NCBI GenBank assembly: GCA_965223545.1
Contig: OZ245006.1
Location: 8,001,703 to 8,065,702 of the forward strand
Length of the DNA stretch: 64,000 bases
Direction of reading: 5' to 3'
From: Planctomycetota bacterium
GTDB taxonomy: Bacteria > Planctomycetota > UBA1135 > UBA2386
In this document: in pieces, positions 9,864-53,759 of the stretch
How the letters are laid out: every line of letters starts with the position of its first letter
Numbering within the stretch: the first letter of the stretch is position 1
The notes under the pieces: model-generated
Seen by the model: the letters and a program-made list of their open reading frames with translations, nothing else
Databases searched by the model: none
What the model was told of the DNA's origin: nothing
Translations under genes and position numbers: made by a program

Positions 9864-10106
9864 GCGTCCGGGGCCGACAATCTTCGTGTGGCGACAACAC
9901 TTCCGAAAGGCCGGTTGTCGTCAGGGCTTCGACACCGCAACTCCCGGCCGCTCGAAAGCAACACTGGCGTCTACGCTCAGCGCCGCCGCCCGGGACCGCT
10001 GGAATCGCGGGCTCCGCTCCTGTCGCGGCGCGCTCGGCCTTTGATATCTCCTAAGTCATGTCAAGGGGTTTTCGCTGGGGCTCGACATCGCGTGTGCACG
10101 GCTTGT

Positions 10107-11609
10107 TCAGGACTCTTCCACAAGACCAGGGAAGTGTTCTTGCATGAGATCACCGATCGGGTGAGGTTGACGTGGGGATTCCACGGCCAGGCCTGTGGCG
10201 TCCATTGGGCGGCCACTCAAGTCCCTCGTCGTCGGAGTCCCCACTCGTCCCTGTCGCCGTTGGTCGCGCTCATGCCGCTGTGGCGCGACGATGCTGCGCG
10301 TGAACTTGGCTGCGATGAGCGCGCGCGCGGCAACCTTCGTGAGCTCGTTGCCGTCGGCGTCTCGCAGGACGTAGCGGACTTGCGTCGACGCCGGCTTGTC
10401 ATCGGCGCGCTGGCTGTCGCGACGCTTCAGGAGGGCGTAGACGCGGCGCGCCATCTTGCCAGCCAATGCGATGAGGATGAGGTTGTGGTGATCACCTGCG
10501 GCGTAGCGGCGAGCGTAGTACGCCGCGAAATCCGGATCCCACTGGCGAGCGACGTCAGCTGCTAGGTAGAGGTACTTCTTGAGTACTCGTTGGCCGGTTT
10601 TGGTGATTGGCATCGAGGGGTCGCTCATGCCCGTCTGCTTCCGGCGTGGACACAGTCCGCAGTAGCTCACGAACTTCTTGCCGTTCGAGAACCGCGCGAT
10701 GTCGCCTACCAAGGCTTCGATGGCCGCAGCGATCGTGGGACCGACGCCGCGCAGTTGCTCGAGTGTTCGGTCAGGATCGACGCCCAGGTAGAGCTTCTTG
10801 ATCTTTGCGTCGAGCTTGCGAACGTCCGTGTTCTTGCGCTCGATCTCATCCAGCTCGTACACCACATCCTCTTGGATGGCCTCGTAGTCGAACGGCATCT
10901 GCCCCGCAGCTCGCAGCTCAGCGTAGTACTCGGCGGCCTGTCGGCAGGACTCGAGCACGCGGTCGACCAAGCACGGGTCATGCGTTCCCTTGGATCGCTT
11001 CGTCAAGAAGCGCTCCAAGCGACTCTTCCCAAGGCCGACCGCTTTCACCGGATCGACGTAGCGCCGCAGAAACCCCATCTTAGCGGCACTGAACTTCTCT
11101 GCCCCCAAGGCCTTCATGAGGCTGGGATTCGCCAGTACCAGTATCGCGTGCACACGACGCTTGTGGTCGCTGAGCTCGCGCGCCAACCGCTCACGCCGCT
11201 TCACGAGTCGACGGATCGTCGTCTCGTCGGCAGTTGGAACACGCAGCTGGTGGACGCCCTTTGGATCCATCTGCGGCAGACGCGCAGCGGCCTCGGCGTC
11301 TACTACGTCGGTTTTGGTGTGCTTGCTATAGAACTTCCGCAGGTCGCTCAGCTTCTGTGGTTTGCTCACGTAGATCTGGAACCCTGCGGCGTTCACGTGC
11401 GCCGCGATGGGCAGCCACGCCAACCCCGTTGGTTCCATCACGAAGCTCACCGGACCCTCGGCACCTTCCTGTGCACGGCGCAGCAGAAGGTCAATACCCT
11501 CACGGCTGTTCTCGACTGAAAACGGTCTGCCCCGAGACTTCGCACCATCCAGAACGACGGCTCGGTGCTTGCTCCTCAAGCCGAGATCCAATCCAACGAA
11601 TCGATTCAT
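10107..11609 (-). CDS. IS110-family DEDD recombinase (500 aa)
   Basis: VGLDLG, MEPTG, KTDVVDA (DEDD); LRGVGPTIAAAIEALVGDIARF, YCGLCP, IALAGKMAR. Confidence 0.95.
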   Translation of the reverse strand: MNRFVGLDLGLRSKHRAVVLDGAKSRGRPFSVENSREGIDLLLRRAQEGAEGPVSFVMEPTGLAWLPIAAHVNAAGFQIYVSKPQKLSDLRKFYSKHTKTDVVDAEAAARLPQMDPKGVHQLRVPTADETTIRRLVKRRERLARELSDHKRRVHAILVLANPSLMKALGAEKFSAAKMGFLRRYVDPVKAVGLGKSRLERFLTKRSKGTHDPCLVDRVLESCRQAAEYYAELRAAGQMPFDYEAIQEDVVYELDEIERKNTDVRKLDAKIKKLYLGVDPDRTLEQLRGVGPTIAAAIEALVGDIARFSNGKKFVSYCGLCPRRKQTGMSDPSMPITKTGQRVLKKYLYLAADVARQWDPDFAAYYARRYAAGDHHNLILIALAGKMARRVYALLKRRDSQRADDKPASTQVRYVLRDADGNELTKVAARALIAAKFTRSIVAPQRHERDQRRQGRVGTPTTRDLSGRPMDATGLAVESPRQPHPIGDLMQEHFPGLVEES

Positions 11610-11983
11610 GTCCCCTCCATGTTCAACGAGTGAGTGTCGACGAGAGGACTCTCCCTACCCGCGCAGTCCGCCTGAGGAGGCGAGTCGCCAAAACGGTTCG
11701 TGTTTCGGGGCCGTGATTTCTCACGCCGCCAATCTCCTAAATCGGGTCCCCCACGCGGGAGGAGAGTCGCAGAACCAAATGAGGGGCCGCTCGAAGCGCC
11801 ACCATTGCGGCAGATCGCGAAACCTCTCCGTCGCACGCCGGGGGACCCTAAGCTCTCTTGCGGCCGATGACCAGACTCCCGACACGACTCCTGCGGCTGC
11901 ACCATCGCGCGAGTCTTCCACACCGCTACGGCGCGACGGGTGTGGAGAACTCTAGCTTCGCAGATCATGGAACCACACATACC
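11610..11983 (-). ncRNA. Candidate IS110 bridge RNA region, copy 1
   Basis: Same sequence as 48245-48618; stem-loops carrying target- and donor-matching segments. Confidence 0.7.
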
Positions 11984-12494
11984 GTTGCGGCCCCGGCCGC
12001 GCTGAGCCTCCGGCGCCTCGAATCTTCGAGCTGCGACAACATTTTCTAGGCGACGCCGCTGCCATGGCAAAGTCGCCGCCGCGCCGGAGGCTCGGAGAGA
12101 CAGTGCCTCCTGGCTCAGCGCGGCGGCGGATTGGTCGGACCTTCCAAACCGCTCCGGCGAGAGCGGCATCCGAGTTTGGTTGCGGCCGTGGCCGCGCTGA
12201 GCCTCAGGGTCCGCAAATCTTCGCGCGGCGACAACCTTTCGGAAGGCTCGATGCCGCTGGAACTTCGACAACGCAGCTCCCGGAGGCTCGAAGACAACAC
12301 TGGCCTCTGGGCTCAGCGCGGCCGCCGGCGACCGCGGGACCCGCGACCGACGCTCGGGTCGCGGAACGCTCCGTGTTTGGTTGCGGCCTCGACCGCGCTG
12401 AGGGGCGGCGTCCGCGAATGAAGAGAGTGGCCGAGAGCGCGAGCGGCGAATGAGTATCCGATTGTCACGCCGCGGTCGATCGTTCGACGCGCGG

Positions 12495-45556: not shown

Positions 45557-45985
45557 ATGCCACCCGCCGACCGACCCGCCATCCCCGAAGCCGAGCTCGC
45601 GCTGCTCAAAGCACTGTGGGAGCGGGGTCCGAGCACGGTGCGCGAGCTCCGGGCGGCGACGCCGGCGCGGGCCTACACGACGGTGCAGACCCTGCTCTCC
45701 AGGCTCGAGGACAAGGGCTACGTCAGCGTCGACCGGGGTGGCGTGGCGCACGTCTTCGCCGCCTCGGTCAGCCGCGAGGATCTGCTCGACCAGCGGCTCG
45801 ACCAGCTGGCATCCGAGCTGTGCGACGGCGCCAGGGTACCGCTGGTGCTGCGCTTGGTCGCCGGCGGTCGCTTCAACGCCGACGACATCGCGCGCTTCCG
45901 CCGGATGCTGGACGAGGCTCCCGGAGCGAGCGCGGACCAGAGCGAAGCCGATCGCGATGCCGAAGATCCCGGGGGGCCATTGTGA
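45557..45985 (+). CDS. BlaI/MecI/CopY-family repressor
   Basis: AELALLKALWERGPSTVREL, AYTTVQTLLSRLEDKGYV. Confidence 0.95.
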   Translation: MPPADRPAIPEAELALLKALWERGPSTVRELRAATPARAYTTVQTLLSRLEDKGYVSVDRGGVAHVFAASVSREDLLDQRLDQLASELCDGARVPLVLRLVAGGRFNADDIARFRRMLDEAPGASADQSEADRDAEDPGGPL

Positions 45986-48135
45986 CCTGGCTGTTGGAGC
46001 ACAGCACCGGCGCGCTGGCGCTCGGCGTCGCGGTGTGGGCCGCGGTGCGCTGGCTGCGGCCGGCGCCGGCCGTGGCCCACCTGCTCTGGCTCGCGGTCAT
46101 CGTCAAGCTGATGCTGCCGCCCCTGCTCCGCTGGCCGGTGCTCCCCGCGGTGGGGATCGCGACGCCCGCGGCGGGGTCGATGCCGTTGCCGGCGGGGGCG
46201 CCGCTCGACCCCGCGGTCTTGCTGCTGGCCTTGCAGCAGCCCGCGGTTCCGCCGGCCGCGCCGGGAGCCGAGGGCTTCGCCTGGCTGCTTTGGCTCTGGG
46301 CGATCGGCTCGATCGGCACCGCGGTCTGGCTGACGCGCGGCGCGCTCCGCACGCGCCGCTGGCTCCGCCGCGCCGCGCCACCGCCTGCCGCCTTTCTCGG
46401 CCGCGTCCGCGCGCTCGGCGCGCGGCTCGGAGTTTCGCCGCCGCGCGTCGCCGTGGTCGCCGACGCCGTGACCCCTTTCGTGTTCGGCCCCGGCCGCCCG
46501 GTGCTCGTGTGGCCGGCGCGCATGCTGGCGCCGAGCCGTGCGCACGACGCCGTGCTGGCGCACGAGCTGGCGCACCTGCGCCGCCGCGACCACTGGGTGG
46601 CGCGGCTGGAGGTGCTGGCCCTGATCGCCTTCTGGTGGCATCCGCTGTTGTGGCTGGCGCGGTCGCGCATGCGCGCCGCCGCCGAGCTCGCCTGTGACGC
46701 GTGGGCGCTGTGGGCGGTCCCACAGGCACGGCGCGACTACGCCGGCGCGTTGATCGACACCCTGGAACTGCAATCCCAAGCGGCGCCCGCCGCGGTCGCG
46801 CTCGGCGCGCGCCAGGCGGACCGTCGCGCTTTCGAAGAGAGACTCGAGATGATTCTGCACGCGAAGCACTCCGTTCGCCGCCGCTGGTCCGTGTTGCCGG
46901 TGGCAGCCCTGGCACTGACCCTCGCCGGCGGTCCTACGTTCGCCCAGGAAGGGGGCGCGCAGCGCGCCAAGACCAGTCGGTCCGAGGAGAGCTTGGAGAG
47001 CAAGATCGAGGCCGCGGTGCGTCGGGCGTTGGCCGAGCACGGCATCGAGGCGGAGGAGTCGGAGGCCGAGACCCCCGCTCCGGCGACACAGCGGGGCGCG
47101 GAGGGCGACGACACCCTGCGCCGGGTGCAGGCGGAGCTGGAGGCGGCCCTCGACGAGGCGCGTGCCGAGATCCGCGGCGACGAGGACCTGCGCGCGCTCG
47201 GGATCGCGGGGGACGTCGAGCGGCTCGTCGGTACCGTGCTGAGCGGTGAAGGGGAGATCGGAGATTCGCTCGGCAGCGTGCTGCAGAAGGCGTTGGCGGG
47301 CGGCTTGCGCCAGGCGCAGCAGGAGATCGCAGACGACGAAGATCTGCGGGCCATGGGCTTGACCGACGACGTGCAGGGCCTGGCCAGTGCGTTGCTCGGC
47401 GGCGAAGGCGACGCGATGGGCAGCCTGCAGGGCGTGGTCGAGAAGGCCATGGCGCACGGCTTGCGCGAGGCGCAGCGGGAGATCGGAGACGACGAAGATC
47501 TGCGGGCCATGGGCTTGACCGACGACGTGCAGGGCCTGGCCCGTGCGCTGCTCGGCGGCGAGGGCGACGCGATGGGCAGCCTGCAGGGCGTGCTCGAGAA
47601 GGCGATGGCGCAGGGCCTCCGCCACGCCCAGCAGGAGATCGCAGACGATGAGGATCTGCGGGCCATGGGCTTGACCGACGACGTGCAGGGCCTGGCCCGT
47701 GCGCTGCTCGGCGGCGAGGGCGACGCGATGGGCAGCCTGCAGGGCCTGGTCGAGAAGGCGATGGCGCAGGGCCTCCGTCACGCCCAGCAGGAGATCGCAG
47801 ACGACGAAGATCTGCGCGCGCTGGGGCTGACCGGCGATGTGCAGGGCCTGGTCGGCGCGCTGATTGGTGGTAATGAAGCGCAGGGCAACCTGGCGCACTC
47901 CGTCGAGCGCGCATTGCGCGCCGCGCGGGGTGAGGGGCAAGGTGCACCGGCGCTGGAGCACGCGCACCAGCAGATCCGGCAGGCGCAGCGCTCGATCGAA
48001 CAGGCGATGCGTGCCCTGCGCGAGCACGGCGCCGAGACCGAGGGGCTGCAGGAGGTCTTGGAGCAGGTGCGCCGTGCCGCCGCGGAGGCGGCTGCGTCGA
48101 CGAGCGCGTCGGGCAAGAAGCGCCGCATCCTCTGA
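45982..48135 (+). CDS. BlaR1-like M56 metallopeptidase with C-terminal 52-aa helical repeats
   Basis: GTGA overlap with blaI; LAHELAHLRRRD, FWWHPLLW, ELACD, FEERLEMI. Confidence 0.92.
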   Translation: MTWLLEHSTGALALGVAVWAAVRWLRPAPAVAHLLWLAVIVKLMLPPLLRWPVLPAVGIATPAAGSMPLPAGAPLDPAVLLLALQQPAVPPAAPGAEGFAWLLWLWAIGSIGTAVWLTRGALRTRRWLRRAAPPPAAFLGRVRALGARLGVSPPRVAVVADAVTPFVFGPGRPVLVWPARMLAPSRAHDAVLAHELAHLRRRDHWVARLEVLALIAFWWHPLLWLARSRMRAAAELACDAWALWAVPQARRDYAGALIDTLELQSQAAPAAVALGARQADRRAFEERLEMILHAKHSVRRRWSVLPVAALALTLAGGPTFAQEGGAQRAKTSRSEESLESKIEAAVRRALAEHGIEAEESEAETPAPATQRGAEGDDTLRRVQAELEAALDEARAEIRGDEDLRALGIAGDVERLVGTVLSGEGEIGDSLGSVLQKALAGGLRQAQQEIADDEDLRAMGLTDDVQGLASALLGGEGDAMGSLQGVVEKAMAHGLREAQREIGDDEDLRAMGLTDDVQGLARALLGGEGDAMGSLQGVLEKAMAQGLRHAQQEIADDEDLRAMGLTDDVQGLARALLGGEGDAMGSLQGLVEKAMAQGLRHAQQEIADDEDLRALGLTGDVQGLVGALIGGNEAQGNLAHSVERALRAARGEGQGAPALEHAHQQIRQAQRSIEQAMRALREHGAETEGLQEVLEQVRRAAAEAAASTSASGKKRRIL
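47149..47880 (+). repeat. Intragenic 156-bp tandem repeat (~4.6 units)
   Basis: D-L-R codons recur at 47185, 47341, 47497, 47653, 47809. Confidence 0.95.
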
Positions 48136-48244
48136 GCGTCCGGGGCCGCAAGTCTTCGCGCGGCGACAACCTTTCGGAAGGCTCGATGCCGCTGGAGCTT
48201 CGACAACGCAGCTCCCGGAGGCTCAGCGCGGCCACGGCCGCAAC

Positions 48245-48618
48245 GGTATGTGTGGTTCCATGATCTGCGAAGCTAGAGTTCTCCACACCCGTCGCGCCGT
48301 AGCGGTGTGGAAGACTCGCGCGATGGTGCAGCCGCAGGAGTCGTGTCGGGAGTCTGGTCATCGGCCGCAAGAGAGCTTAGGGTCCCCCGGCGTGCGACGG
48401 AGAGGTTTCGCGATCTGCCGCAATGGTGGCGCTTCGAGCGGCCCCTCATTTGGTTCTGCGACTCTCCTCCCGCGTGGGGGACCCGATTTAGGAGATTGGC
48501 GGCGTGAGAAATCACGGCCCCGAAACACGAACCGTTTTGGCGACTCGCCTCCTCAGGCGGACTGCGCGGGTAGGGAGAGTCCTCTCGTCGACACTCACTC
48601 GTTGAACATGGAGGGGAC
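48245..48618 (+). ncRNA. Candidate IS110 bridge RNA region, copy 2
   Basis: 5' hairpin 48276-48317; long stem 48380-48484 with loop strands GCCGCAA and TTTGGTT; donor match TTAGGAGAT 48488-48496. Confidence 0.72.
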
Positions 48619-50121
48619 ATGAATCGATTCGTTGGATTGGATCTCGGCTTGAGGAGCAAGCACCGAGCCGTCGTTCTGGATGGTGCGAAGTCTCGGGGCA
48701 GACCGTTTTCAGTCGAGAACAGCCGTGAGGGTATTGACCTTCTGCTGCGCCGTGCACAGGAAGGTGCCGAGGGTCCGGTGAGCTTCGTGATGGAACCAAC
48801 GGGGTTGGCGTGGCTGCCCATCGCGGCGCACGTGAACGCCGCAGGGTTCCAGATCTACGTGAGCAAACCACAGAAGCTGAGCGACCTGCGGAAGTTCTAT
48901 AGCAAGCACACCAAAACCGACGTAGTAGACGCCGAGGCCGCTGCGCGTCTGCCGCAGATGGATCCAAAGGGCGTCCACCAGCTGCGTGTTCCAACTGCCG
49001 ACGAGACGACGATCCGTCGACTCGTGAAGCGGCGTGAGCGGTTGGCGCGCGAGCTCAGCGACCACAAGCGTCGTGTGCACGCGATACTGGTACTGGCGAA
49101 TCCCAGCCTCATGAAGGCCTTGGGGGCAGAGAAGTTCAGTGCCGCTAAGATGGGGTTTCTGCGGCGCTACGTCGATCCGGTGAAAGCGGTCGGCCTTGGG
49201 AAGAGTCGCTTGGAGCGCTTCTTGACGAAGCGATCCAAGGGAACGCATGACCCGTGCTTGGTCGACCGCGTGCTCGAGTCCTGCCGACAGGCCGCCGAGT
49301 ACTACGCTGAGCTGCGAGCTGCGGGGCAGATGCCGTTCGACTACGAGGCCATCCAAGAGGATGTGGTGTACGAGCTGGATGAGATCGAGCGCAAGAACAC
49401 GGACGTTCGCAAGCTCGACGCAAAGATCAAGAAGCTCTACCTGGGCGTCGATCCTGACCGAACACTCGAGCAACTGCGCGGCGTCGGTCCCACGATCGCT
49501 GCGGCCATCGAAGCCTTGGTAGGCGACATCGCGCGGTTCTCGAACGGCAAGAAGTTCGTGAGCTACTGCGGACTGTGTCCACGCCGGAAGCAGACGGGCA
49601 TGAGCGACCCCTCGATGCCAATCACCAAAACCGGCCAACGAGTACTCAAGAAGTACCTCTACCTAGCAGCTGACGTCGCTCGCCAGTGGGATCCGGATTT
49701 CGCGGCGTACTACGCTCGCCGCTACGCCGCAGGTGATCACCACAACCTCATCCTCATCGCATTGGCTGGCAAGATGGCGCGCCGCGTCTACGCCCTCCTG
49801 AAGCGTCGCGACAGCCAGCGCGCCGATGACAAGCCGGCGTCGACGCAAGTCCGCTACGTCCTGCGAGACGCCGACGGCAACGAGCTCACGAAGGTTGCCG
49901 CGCGCGCGCTCATCGCAGCCAAGTTCACGCGCAGCATCGTCGCGCCACAGCGGCATGAGCGCGACCAACGGCGACAGGGACGAGTGGGGACTCCGACGAC
50001 GAGGGACTTGAGTGGCCGCCCAATGGACGCCACAGGCCTGGCCGTGGAATCCCCACGTCAACCTCACCCGATCGGTGATCTCATGCAAGAACACTTCCCT
50101 GGTCTTGTGGAAGAGTCCTGA
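48619..50121 (+). CDS. IS110-family DEDD recombinase (500 aa)
   Basis: Translation identical to 10107-11609; GGAGGGG RBS. Confidence 0.95.
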   Translation: MNRFVGLDLGLRSKHRAVVLDGAKSRGRPFSVENSREGIDLLLRRAQEGAEGPVSFVMEPTGLAWLPIAAHVNAAGFQIYVSKPQKLSDLRKFYSKHTKTDVVDAEAAARLPQMDPKGVHQLRVPTADETTIRRLVKRRERLARELSDHKRRVHAILVLANPSLMKALGAEKFSAAKMGFLRRYVDPVKAVGLGKSRLERFLTKRSKGTHDPCLVDRVLESCRQAAEYYAELRAAGQMPFDYEAIQEDVVYELDEIERKNTDVRKLDAKIKKLYLGVDPDRTLEQLRGVGPTIAAAIEALVGDIARFSNGKKFVSYCGLCPRRKQTGMSDPSMPITKTGQRVLKKYLYLAADVARQWDPDFAAYYARRYAAGDHHNLILIALAGKMARRVYALLKRRDSQRADDKPASTQVRYVLRDADGNELTKVAARALIAAKFTRSIVAPQRHERDQRRQGRVGTPTTRDLSGRPMDATGLAVESPRQPHPIGDLMQEHFPGLVEES

Positions 50122-50163
50122 ACAAGCCGTGCACACGCGATGTCGAGCCCCAGCGAAAACCCC

Positions 50164-50169
50164 TTGACA
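50164..50169 (+). promoter_or_regulatory. Outward-facing -35 hexamer of the IS circle-junction promoter
   Basis: TTGACA 15 bp from the right end; circularisation places TATGTG (48247-48252) 17 bp downstream. Confidence 0.75.
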
Positions 50170-50378
50170 TGACTTAGGAGATATCAAACTCGGATGCCGC
50201 TCTTGCCGGAAACGCTTTGGAGAGTCCGACCCATCCGCCGCCGCGCTGAGACGAGTCCTCGGTGGCAGCGCCGCCGCAGCCGCGGCGCGTCGGGCGCCGG
50301 CTATGACCGGGCTGGCGGCGTGCTACGTTATCGATGCCCCCGCCCGTTGCGCGCCGTGACGGCCGCGCAGTCGCCCCC

Positions 50379-53300
50379 ATGAGCCAACGCCCGAAGTCCA
50401 AGCTCGATCTGTCCCAGAAGAAGCGCGCACTCCTGCAGGCACTTCTCGAGCGGGAGGGTGCCGGTAGCGCGGAGCGGATCCCGCCTCGTGACAGCGGGCC
50501 GGTGGCGCCGCTGTCGTTTGCCCAGGAGCGCGTCTGGTTCCTCGACCAGATGGCGCACGGCACGCCCCTGTTCAACGTGCCCGGTGCGGTGCCGCTGCGC
50601 GGCCCGCTCGACGTGGACACGCTGCGGCGTGCGCTGCAGGAGGTCGCACACCGGCACGAGACGTTGCGGACCACTCTCGACGCTGGCGATGGCGCGCCGG
50701 TCCAGCGCGTGCACGCGCCCGCGGAGATCGCCCTCGACGTGGTGTCGATCGACGCGGCCGACGCGGAGGCGGTGCGCGATTGGCTGCGCGCCGAGATGAG
50801 ACGGCCGTTCGACGTGGTCGGTGGCCCCCTCTGGCGGGCGGTGTTGCTGCGCACCGGCGAGCAGGAGCACGTGTTGTCGGTGTGCATGCACCACTCGATC
50901 TCCGAAGCGGCTGCGTTGGGCGTCCTGTTCGACGAAGTGGCCGCGCTGTACGCCGCCTTCAAGGCAGGGCAGCCGTCGCCGCTGCCCGCGCTGCCGATCC
51001 AGTACGGAGACTACGCCGCGTGGCAGCGGCAGTGGGTACGCGATCGGGTCGTGGGGGCCCAGCTCGACTACTGGAAGGAGCAGCTCGGCGGCACGTTGCC
51101 GCAATTGCAGCTGCCGCTCGACCGGCCGCGGCCGGCGAGCCCCACGTATACCGGTGCGTTTGCGCACCGCCGGCTGTCGTCGAGCCTCACCGACCCACTT
51201 GCCGACTTCGCCAAGGACGCCGGGGCGACTCCATTCATGCTGTACTTGGCGGCGTTCGCCGCCCTGCTGTCGCGCTACGGTGAGCAGGACGACGTGCTGA
51301 TCGGCTCGCCGATCGCGCGGCGCGATCGCGCCGAGCTCGAGGGTTTGATCGGGTTCTTCGTCAACACCATCGTGCTGCGCACCGACCTCGGCGGTGGCCC
51401 GAGCTTCCGCGAGCTGCTGGCGCGGGTGCGCGGCGTGGCGCTGGATGCCTTCTCCCACGCCGACCTGCCGTTCGAGCTGGTCGTCGAGGCGTTGCAGCCC
51501 GGTCGCGCGCAGGGCGCGACGTCGCTGTTTCAAGTGATGTTCGATCTGCCCGCCGAGCCGCGCCCGGCGCTGGCGCTGGCCGACCTTGAGCCGGCGCGCG
51601 TGTTCGAGCCGTGGGATGTTCACAGTGGCACGACCAAGGTCGACCTTGCGCTGTTCCTGTGGAATGTCGAGGACGGCATGGTTGCCGCGGTCGAGTACAA
51701 CACCGACTTGTTCGATCGCGCGACGATCGAGCGCTTCCTGACGCACTACGAGAATCTGCTGGCGGCCGCGCTGGCAGCGCCCGACACCCCGCTCGCGGAG
51801 TTGGAGATCCTGGCGCCCGCCGAGCGCAGGCAGCTGCTGGTGGAGTGGAATCGGACGGCGGTCGAATTCGACCGCGGCGTCAGCGTGCAGCAGCTGGTCG
51901 AGGCGCAGGTGGCGCGCACACCGGATGCGCTGGCGCTGTCCGGCCCGGCCCTGGACGGCGGCGCGTCCACGCTCACGTACTCCGAGTGGAACCGGCGGGC
52001 AAACCAGCTCGCGCATCGATTGATCGAACACGGGGTGGGTCCCGACGTCTTGGTGGCGGTGTGCATGGAGCGCACTCCCGCGCTGGTGGTCGCCCTGCTG
52101 GCGGTGCTCAAGGCGGGGGGTGCGTACGTGCCTCTCGATCCAGGCAATCCGGCCGAGCGGCAGGCGATGATGCTGGAGGACGCCGGCGTCCCGGTACTGC
52201 TGACGCAGAGCAGCGTGCTGCCGGGGCTGCCCGACTGCCGGGCCCGCGTGATCGCGGTGGACCGGGACGCCGCCGAGATCGAGGGCGCTGCAGATCACGA
52301 CCCAGCGTGCCGCACCAACGCCGACCACCTCTCCTACGTGATCTTCACCTCCGGCTCCACCGGCCGGCCGAAGGGAGTGCAGATCCCGCATCGGGGCTTG
52401 GTCAACCTGCTGTCCTGGCACCGGCGGGTGTACGAAGTCACCGCCGCCGACCGTGCCACGCAGTTGGCGGGAACCGCGTTCGATGCGTCGGTCTGGGAGC
52501 TGTGGCCGTACCTGACCGCCGGCGCCAGCATCCACCTCCCGGACGAAGAGACCCGCGCCGGCCCGCGCGATCTGCTGCACTGGCTGGCTGCGGAGAAGAT
52601 CACGCTGACGTTCCTGCCGACGCCGTTGGCGGAGCTGGTGATCGCCGAGCCGCAGCCGCCGGACATGGCGCTGCGGTGCATGCTCACCGGGGGCGACAAG
52701 CTGCACCGGCCGCCGCCGCCGGGCCTGACCTATCAGCTGGTCAACCACTACGGGCCCAGCGAGAGCTCGGTGGTGACGACGTGCGTGCCGATCGACGCCG
52801 CCGAACGTGCGGGCAGTGCACCGCCGATCGGTCGGCCGATCGACAACACGCGCGTCTATCTGCTCGACCGCCACCTGCAACCCGTGCCGATCGGGGTGCC
52901 CGGCGAGCTGATGGTCGCCGGCGACGGGCTCGCCCGCGGCTACCACGGGCGTCCGGACCTGACTGAAGAGCGCTTCTTGCCCGATCCGTTCGCCGCCGAT
53001 CGCGCGGCGCGGATGTACCGCACCGGTGATCTCGCGCGTTACCGGGCCGATGGCCAGATCGAGTTTTTGGGGCGCATCGATCATCAAGTGAAGGTGCGGG
53101 GCTTTCGCATCGAGCTCGGCGAGATCGAGGCGGTGTTGGCGGCACACGACGCGGTGCGCGATGCTCTGGTCGTGGTCCGCGAGGATCGCCCCGGCGAGAA
53201 GCGGTTGGTGGCCTACTTGCGGCCGGCGCCGGAGACGGCGCCTCCGGCGGCCGCGCTGCGTGCCTTCGCCGCCGACCGCCTGCCGGAGTACATGGTGCCG

Positions 53301-53759
53301 GCGGCCTTTGTCTGCCTGGACGCGTTCCCCCTGACGCGCAACGGCAAGGTCGACCGCGACGCGCTGCCGCCGCCGGCCGAGCCGGTCGCCGGCGAGAGCG
53401 CGCCGGTCGCGCCGCCGGGCAACGAGCTCGAGCAGCGGTTGGCCGGCATCTGGGCCGAGCTGCTCGGCACCGCGCGCGTCGGCATCGACGACAACTTCTT
53501 CGAGCTCGGCGGCCACTCGCTGTTGATGGTGCAAGTGCGTAACCGGCTCGAGGCCGAGCTCGGCCGCACGGTGTCCATGGTGCAGCTGTTCAAGCACCCG
53601 ACCGTGCGCGCGCTGGCCGCCGCGCTCAGCGACGCGCCCGTGCAGCCGGTGACCGCGGATGCCGGTGTCGCCGCGGGGCGGCGCGAGGCGCGGCGCGAGG
53701 CCCGCCGCGACGCGCTGCGCGGCCGCCGTGATCGGCGTGCGCGGCGTTCCGACGGCTGA
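50379..53759 (+). CDS. Single-module NRPS (C-A-PCP, no TE)
   Basis: PLSFAQERVWF, HHSISEA, LIGFFVNT, FTSGSTGRPKG, NHYGPSE, YRTGD, NGKVDR, FFELGGHSL. Confidence 0.95.
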   Translation: MSQRPKSKLDLSQKKRALLQALLEREGAGSAERIPPRDSGPVAPLSFAQERVWFLDQMAHGTPLFNVPGAVPLRGPLDVDTLRRALQEVAHRHETLRTTLDAGDGAPVQRVHAPAEIALDVVSIDAADAEAVRDWLRAEMRRPFDVVGGPLWRAVLLRTGEQEHVLSVCMHHSISEAAALGVLFDEVAALYAAFKAGQPSPLPALPIQYGDYAAWQRQWVRDRVVGAQLDYWKEQLGGTLPQLQLPLDRPRPASPTYTGAFAHRRLSSSLTDPLADFAKDAGATPFMLYLAAFAALLSRYGEQDDVLIGSPIARRDRAELEGLIGFFVNTIVLRTDLGGGPSFRELLARVRGVALDAFSHADLPFELVVEALQPGRAQGATSLFQVMFDLPAEPRPALALADLEPARVFEPWDVHSGTTKVDLALFLWNVEDGMVAAVEYNTDLFDRATIERFLTHYENLLAAALAAPDTPLAELEILAPAERRQLLVEWNRTAVEFDRGVSVQQLVEAQVARTPDALALSGPALDGGASTLTYSEWNRRANQLAHRLIEHGVGPDVLVAVCMERTPALVVALLAVLKAGGAYVPLDPGNPAERQAMMLEDAGVPVLLTQSSVLPGLPDCRARVIAVDRDAAEIEGAADHDPACRTNADHLSYVIFTSGSTGRPKGVQIPHRGLVNLLSWHRRVYEVTAADRATQLAGTAFDASVWELWPYLTAGASIHLPDEETRAGPRDLLHWLAAEKITLTFLPTPLAELVIAEPQPPDMALRCMLTGGDKLHRPPPPGLTYQLVNHYGPSESSVVTTCVPIDAAERAGSAPPIGRPIDNTRVYLLDRHLQPVPIGVPGELMVAGDGLARGYHGRPDLTEERFLPDPFAADRAARMYRTGDLARYRADGQIEFLGRIDHQVKVRGFRIELGEIEAVLAAHDAVRDALVVVREDRPGEKRLVAYLRPAPETAPPAAALRAFAADRLPEYMVPAAFVCLDAFPLTRNGKVDRDALPPPAEPVAGESAPVAPPGNELEQRLAGIWAELLGTARVGIDDNFFELGGHSLLMVQVRNRLEAELGRTVSMVQLFKHPTVRALAAALSDAPVQPVTADAGVAAGRREARREARRDALRGRRDRRARRSDG

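Follow-up and report, generated by a model that had tools for sequence, protein, structure and literature searches.

A distant IS110-family insertion sequence from a Planctomycetota bacterium with a probable bridge RNA in its left end

The DNA analysed here, a window of 64,000 nucleotides from a Planctomycetota bacterium, contains an IS110-family element of 1940 bp on its forward strand (48245-50184), in which a non-coding left end of 374 nt precedes the gene for a recombinase (Table 1). Comparison across the whole genome found the element in 11 copies with 0 differences between them. The copy described here stands between two genes on the same strand: upstream, a gene at 45616-48135 whose product has a peptidase domain of the BlaR1-type M56 family (E 2e-33) and then several 65-aa acidic repeats, and downstream, a gene at 50334-53759 whose product, a module of a non-ribosomal peptide synthetase, has condensation, adenylation and carrier domains. 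The second copy in the window, on the opposite strand, adjoins two empty sites in a tandem REP-like array whose units recur about every 200 bp.

Table 1. Coordinates of the element's features in the window. A slash within a sequence marks the insertion point; target positions are counted from it.
Feature	Position	Strand	Remarks
Left target half GCCGCAAC	48237-48244	+	Stays at the left junction; identical at 11/11 insertion sites
Candidate -10 hexamer TATGTG	48247-48252	+	2 nt inside the left end; weak consensus match
5' stem-loop, arms 48276-89 / 48304-17	48276-48317	+	Inverted repeat I5, 14 nt, 86% complementary
Target-binding loop module: long outer stem around internal loop and hairpin	48380-48484	+	Outer-stem pairs covary (helices 1-3)
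Left target guide GCCGCAAU	48417-48424	+	Same sense as the target top strand, -8 to -1; last U opposite a bottom-strand G
Hairpin capping the target loop	48425-48445	+	97% of cells paired; double changes in 7/9 pairs (MAFFT), 8/9 (model-fitted)
Right target guide UUUGGUU	48449-48455	+	Antisense to AAC/CAAA, positions -3 to +4
Left donor guide UUAGGAGAU	48488-48496	+	Same sense as right-end -11 to -3; 9/9 identical to 50174-82
GAAA-capped donor-loop hairpin	48498-48521	+	93-95% of cells paired; double changes in 7/9 pairs (MAFFT), 9/9 (model-fitted)
Right donor guide ACGAACCGU	48527-48535	+	3' five bases pair with left-junction -2 to +3; one skipped; 5' three can pair with +5 to +7
Recombinase gene, 500 aa	48619-50121	+	PF01548, E 1.9e-24; PF02371, E 4e-21; the element's only long gene
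Candidate -35 hexamer TTGACA	50164-50169	+	15 nt before the element's right terminus
Right end: left-donor segment TTAGGAGAT and terminal AT	50174-50184	+	Relatives end in the same motif
Right target half CAAA	50185-50188	+	Identical at 11/11 insertion sites; flanks differ past it
Second identical copy of the element	10044-11983	-	RNA module at 11682-11854
Empty target site GCCGCAACCAAA	12175-12186	-	Uninterrupted 12-mer in the window
Other empty target site, same 12-mer	12376-12387	-	In the window

Members of the IS110 family are described as elements whose recombinase, made up of RuvC-like DEDD, coiled-coil and Tnp domains, goes with a left end and with a promoter that spans the joined ends; the present element, with its candidate promoter, fits this description. 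The protein encoded here has the N-terminal RuvC-like DEDD domain (PF01548) and the C-terminal Tnp domain (Transposase_20, PF02371). The DEDD residues are well kept in the clade (n = 56), with D101 and D104 present in 56/56 sequences, D8 in 54/56 and E59 in 52, the other 4 having D at this position. Its sequence matches bridge recombinases with E values of 9.2e-17 (ISCro4) and 2.2e-13, and the ten best fold matches of its predicted structure (pLDDT 87.9) are IS621 and ISCro4 chains, with TM scores of 0.71-0.74 on the target and an identity of about 20%. The serine of the IS621 ESG motif (residue 243, chain 8wt6_A), which we take to be the catalytic one, aligns with Thr326 (codon 49594-49596), and the loop around this residue (324-336) is predicted at low confidence in the model. 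The same column of the clade alignment is evenly split over the 56 sequences, 28 having T and 28 having S, so that a hydroxyl residue is kept. The family description speaks of a Tnp domain with 'a conserved catalytic serine' and does not specify the residue. A text search of the literature returned no paper linking the IS110 catalytic serine with threonine.

The limits of the element are set by its 11 identical copies and can also be read from its empty sites. These have the form GCCGCAAC/CAAA, in which window position 48244 is directly joined to 50185, and the heptamer AACCAAA therefore straddles the insertion point. DNA sequencing leads to the same limits: unitigs of four runs, all from one study, break at 48237 and at 50188/9, and both an element unitig and empty-site joints are present in these runs. 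No circle junction was found in the contigs of the same four runs or in the assembly, and the sequencing runs listed as containing the element include none of RNA. The uninterrupted target 12-mer occurs 95 times in the genome, compared with 0.81 occurrences expected from base composition, and nearly all of these empty sites lie inside an extragenic, REP-like repeat that contains a GCGGCC...GGCCGC palindrome. The repeat is seen, for example, at 48214-48244 and 50185-50230 of the window, on either side of the element, and some of the empty sites are in arrays at 195-bp spacing.

Comparison of the left end with its homologs depended largely on metagenomes, since a protein search at E 1e-40 found a recombinase relative in 0/338 other genomes of the bacterium's own order. 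A large protein collection supplied 103 recombinase relatives with 35-73% identity, and the corresponding DNA came from 80 loci in metagenomes and 6 in genomes. Two cautions apply to the counts that follow: the relatives are mainly on metagenome contigs of about 2 kb, where chimeras are possible, and kinship among them means that the counts overstate the number of independent events. A part of the left end, at about 48418-48577 of the window, aligns upstream of the relatives' genes at roughly 70-75% identity, and a profile of the left end matched 67 loci. A covariance model found the RNA module in 72/87 sources, always on the gene's strand and upstream of the gene. A weak match of this model (14.1 bits, E 0.0049), correctly placed upstream of a gene for a 30%-identical IS110 transposase, was seen at 541-722 of a locus on pBMUL01 of Burkholderia multivorans (L111), which suggests that the RNA architecture may reach cultured bacteria.

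A preliminary description of this DNA, made from its letters, had proposed that the left end is a candidate bridge RNA and that this could be checked by folding it, by building a covariance model from homologous elements and by looking for covariation between guides and targets. The fold gave an energy no better than that of shuffled sequences (z -0.98 and -1.17, i.e., about -1), and for this reason the evidence for structure rests on the relatives and not on folding energy. The structure that was assessed in the relatives consisted of a three-part outer stem, a hairpin in the first loop and a GAAA-type hairpin in the second. Among 34 sequences aligned with MAFFT, paired cells amount to 87.6%, compared with 43-54% when the partners are slid, and compensatory changes occur in 25/38 pairs; 0/500 shuffles reached the observed values. 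In the alignment fitted to the covariance model (59 distinct sequences), which is biased towards the structure, the corresponding figures are 87.7% against 40-50%, and 35/38 pairs have compensatory changes. Frequent G.U pairs favour the plus strand as the RNA strand. RNAalifold, run on the MAFFT alignment, returned the two hairpins only, and the outer stem required a hand-written structure. This stem is formed by GGGTCCCCC (48380-88) with GGGGGACCC (48476-84) and by GGAGAG (48399-404) with CTCTCC (48462-67), the pairings that the preliminary description had picked out, and the hairpin CGCT-TCG-AGCG (48430-40) that it saw inside the loop is likewise in place, as are the GAAA-capped stem and the ACCGT at 48531-35 that it placed further along.

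An Rfam scan of 47800-50600 at E values up to 10 returned only chance-level hits to snoTBR5 (E 0.61) and the SodB thermometer (E 9.6). Inspection by eye found no basal stem for the donor loop, and no covariation of the bases before the left donor guide with those after the right donor guide. Towards the 5' side, a CCACAG...CTGTGG hairpin is found in many relatives at the same spot as the 5' stem-loop of the window. Two small hairpins follow the donor loop and precede the ribosome-binding site, one at 48546-48559 (CGCC...GGCG), which by eye varies on both sides in relatives, and one at 48573-48586 (GGGAGAG/CUCUC).

The internal loop of the first module carries two segments that match the target, and together they span exactly the 12 bases that the 11 insertion sites have in common. 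The left one had been described as GCCGCAA (48417-23), equal to the left target half; this holds, with the refinement that the guide is best extended to 48417-24, where its terminal U is opposite a bottom-strand G. The right one, TTTGGTT in DNA letters, had been read as antisense to an AACCAAA across the insertion point, a reading confirmed by the empty sites. When the 374-nt end was shuffled 200000 times, the 7-mer of the left target, with its antisense partner no more than 60 nt downstream, arose 7 times. The left target half is matched once more by a GGCCGCAA at 48363-48370, just 5' of the outer stem (the 7-mer itself at 48364-70); it is not kept in relatives and may be due to chance.

Alignment of the relatives shows conserved stems and two hypervariable segments, one 5' of a conserved UGG and one 3' of the first hairpin. 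The flanks of each relative were read from the conserved ends of the elements, GGTAT... and ...TTAGG.GA..AT, and could thus be compared with its own guides. The mean longest same-sense match of the left target guide to its own left flank is 6.10 nt, versus 3.36 nt for non-cognate flanks (31 elements), and the antisense run of the right target guide from +1 of its own right flank is 3.86 versus 1.15 (28 elements); for each of the two guides, 0/10000 permutations reached the observed value. The -1 base of the left junction complements the aligned base of the 3' guide in 30/31 elements, the exception being L030, a relative whose guide fits the right flank poorly. The register of the left target guide varies by subclade: it reaches only to -3 in L065, L036, L044 and others, to -1 through a G.U pair in the type found in the window, and to -1 exactly in the L026 type.

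The donor loop can be examined in the same way, with the two ends of the element taking the place of the flanks. The identity of TTAGGAGAT at 48488-96 with the right end at 50174-82, reported in the preliminary description, is correct, and 108 of the 200000 shuffled sequences contained the 9-mer of the right end; the two bases beside the crossover are not reached by this match. In the relatives, right ends were placed independently of the guide, from a -35-like hexamer and its spacing, as an exact search with the guide 7-mer or 6-mer is weaker and partly circular. With ends placed in this manner, the mean identity of the left donor guide to the right end is 6.32/7 over 41 elements, a value that 0/10000 permutations reached. 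Position -5 is concordant in 41/41 elements (G/G in 24 and A/A in 17) and position -7 in 40/41, and mismatches occur at -6 in 10/41 and at -3 in 17/41. Position -10 is identical in 5/29 elements only, and the same small fraction, 5/29 with the window among them, has all nine bases identical. Across the clade, -2 is never covered by the guide and -1 rarely.

The right donor guide had been called the weakest of the four assignments, and the relatives reverse this judgement. Its nine positions, taken from 5' to 3', are paired in 24, 18, 28, 3, 37, 37, 37, 36 and 32 of 37 elements (for the 3' five positions, the counts are of Watson-Crick or wobble pairs), so that each of the 3' five bases is paired in 32 to 37 of the 37. 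Pairing at +1 is Watson-Crick in 37/37 (G:C in 26 and T:A in 11), and three pair types are seen at -1 (C:G in 17, T:A in 13 and G:C in 6). ACCGU is therefore well supported as the putative reader of the left junction. The preliminary description had matched it to an A(C/T)GGT at the left end; it is complementary to the ACGGT of the left junction, and only through a G.T wobble would it pair with the expected circle junction.

The same junctions differ in the bases next to the crossover. In 11/11 copies the left junction reads AC (48243-48244) and the right junction AT (50183-50184), the target itself reading AC; the element boundaries do not share a core dinucleotide (AC vs AT). The -1 base is discordant between the two junctions in 17/27 elements of the clade, and each of these 17 has T at its right junction and, at its left junction, the base that both 3' guides predict; the reverse was never seen. 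Only one arrangement is thus observed, with target bases on the left and donor bases on the right. A staggered double-strand exchange would leave a heteroduplex at both junctions, and its segregation should give both arrangements. The single arrangement would be expected if only the top strand were transferred and its complement supplied by replication, and equally if both strands were cut at the same place, two possibilities that sequence alone cannot separate. Transfer of the top strand only is claimed from bench work in the copy-out, top-strand insertion model of CazIS110-1 (bioRxiv 10.1101/2025.10.25.684509; bioRxiv 10.64898/2026.08.31.748434). The junction pattern described here is as this model predicts, although the bench results concern other elements, and the present pattern, which comes from natural sequence, would also result from blunt exchange. 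In excision, according to the published account, the right donor guide binds the left half of the integrated element, and a guide that follows the left-junction base and not the donor T fits this role. We therefore propose, tentatively, that the bases beside the crossover are not a shared core and may be the footprint of top-strand-only transfer (copy-out, paste-in and a replicated second strand), with a right donor guide tuned to the integrated left junction for excision, in a clade of which half, this evidently active element included, has Thr at the putative nucleophile position.

The two ends may also act together as a promoter. With the -35 candidate 15 nt before the right terminus of the element and the -10 candidate 2 nt past its left one, joining gives a 17-nt spacer, and a TTG...-17 nt-TAT... 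geometry is present in 28/28 elements for which both ends are available, the -10 candidate of the window being weak. A promoter scan of the linear copy returned 0 sites.

Several other explanations of these observations have to be weighed. A single repeat family, in many cases arranged in tandem, accounts for most of the insertions, and the copies could owe their spread to homologous recombination or duplication between REP arrays instead of to RNA-guided transposition; the identity of their flanks would then reflect the repeat alone. The flanks diverge outside the 12-mer, however; the insertion at genome position 5137697 has flanks that are unrelated except for CCGCAAC/CAAA, and relatives with other guides occupy other sites that fit their own guides. 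We consider this explanation hardly credible. Alternatively, the left end could be no more than a structured 5' untranslated region through which the recombinase mRNA is controlled in its translation or stability, in which case the protein alone would read the REP-like site and the matches would be incidental. Such a role would suit the hairpins near the ribosome-binding site and an unexceptional single-sequence fold, and a separate small RNA is itself a prediction. It does not predict the split into sense and antisense segments, though, nor that the variable loop segments should change with the flanks and ends in relatives, nor that the 12 nt conserved at the 11 insertions should be the exact span of the two target guides, and we regard it as very unlikely.

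A bridge RNA is retained in an explanation that differs for one guide only. Here UUAGGAGAU would mainly be a conserved protein-binding or structural motif whose likeness to the right end comes from, for example, a shared promoter spacer, and the donor would be chosen by the right donor guide together with the protein. The motif is nearly invariant, its agreement with the right end is poor at -10, absent on the crossover side at -2 and imperfect at -6 and -3, and all of this would be in keeping with such a function. On the other side, the G to A switch at -5 is joint in RNA and DNA without exception, -7 agrees in all elements but one, and the position and polarity of the segment are those of the left donor guide of IS621 (PMC11208160). 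This explanation, too, appears improbable, and a bridge RNA with four guides is the reading that we prefer.

Among known systems, site choice is also RNA-guided in the IS1111-group seekRNA elements, which have a recombinase of the same family and encode their RNA in the right end, after the gene; the RNA of the present element differs in lying upstream of the gene. The ISCro4 bridge recombinase (PDB 9t56) is the best match to our protein by both sequence and fold, and both of its domains align, but it is distant (about 20-21% identity) and the comparison is by protein only. There are many parallels with IS621 of E. coli (PMC11208160, PMC13626964). In both elements the RNA lies in the left end, upstream of a recombinase with DEDD and Tnp domains; a 5' hairpin, a target loop and a donor loop follow one another in that order; the 5' guides have the same sense as the DNA and the 3' guides are antisense (PMC11208160), a scheme that the preliminary description had invoked and with which the covariation in relatives agrees. 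The right donor guide of IS621 pairs discontinuously (PMC11208160), and one position is skipped here (3/37 paired). A promoter split over the joined ends, a candidate in our case, and a target in a REP-type repeat are further likenesses (PMC11208160, PMC13626964). There are also differences. The protein has 500 aa here and 326-328 in IS621, with about 20% identity; the boundaries read AC and AT, whereas elements of the IS621 type are described as having the same core dinucleotide at both, read by all four guides; the left donor guide ends 2 nt short of the crossover; Thr stands at the position aligned with the catalytic Ser; and the RNA has no detectable Rfam sequence match. The element is a distant branch of a known kind of RNA-guided recombination, with variant features.

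Taken together, we put at about 0.9 the probability that 48245-50184 is an active IS110-family insertion sequence whose left end encodes a bridge RNA by which the recombinase picks both of its partners. The idea of a divergent RNA-guided recombinase, with guides, target and donor ends all inside the window (as are the two empty sites at 12175-86 and 12376-87), had been put forward in the preliminary description and is supported by all four guide assignments and by their covariation. By analogy with IS621-type systems, the left end would be transcribed into an RNA with a 5' hairpin, then a target-binding module and then a donor-binding module, and the recombinase would bind this RNA. Joining of the ends would form a promoter (TTGACA from the right end, 17 nt, TATGTG from the left end) that would boost transcription. 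The left target guide, which has the sense of the target top strand, would pair with the bottom strand and UUUGGUU would pair with the top strand over the crossover AAC/CAAA, the two target guides jointly setting the 12-mer GCCGCAACCAAA inside the REP-like repeat. In the donor loop, ACGAACCGU would skip one position in its pairing to the top strand about the left end of the element. Catalysis would then bring about strand exchange just 3' of the target C and just 3' of the right-end AT.

Bridge recombinases are under development as programmable DNA-insertion tools, and a natural system of this kind can be informative in several ways. The 11 insertions and 95 empty sites, together with about 70 relatives whose guides can be read, form a ready-made data set on specificity from a distant branch of the family. 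The mismatch between the left and right junctions bears on the dispute over whether these elements move by double-strand exchange through a Holliday junction or by top-strand-only copy-and-paste. Finally, if an element that is evidently active has Thr as its catalytic residue, the range of active sites accepted as functional would become wider.
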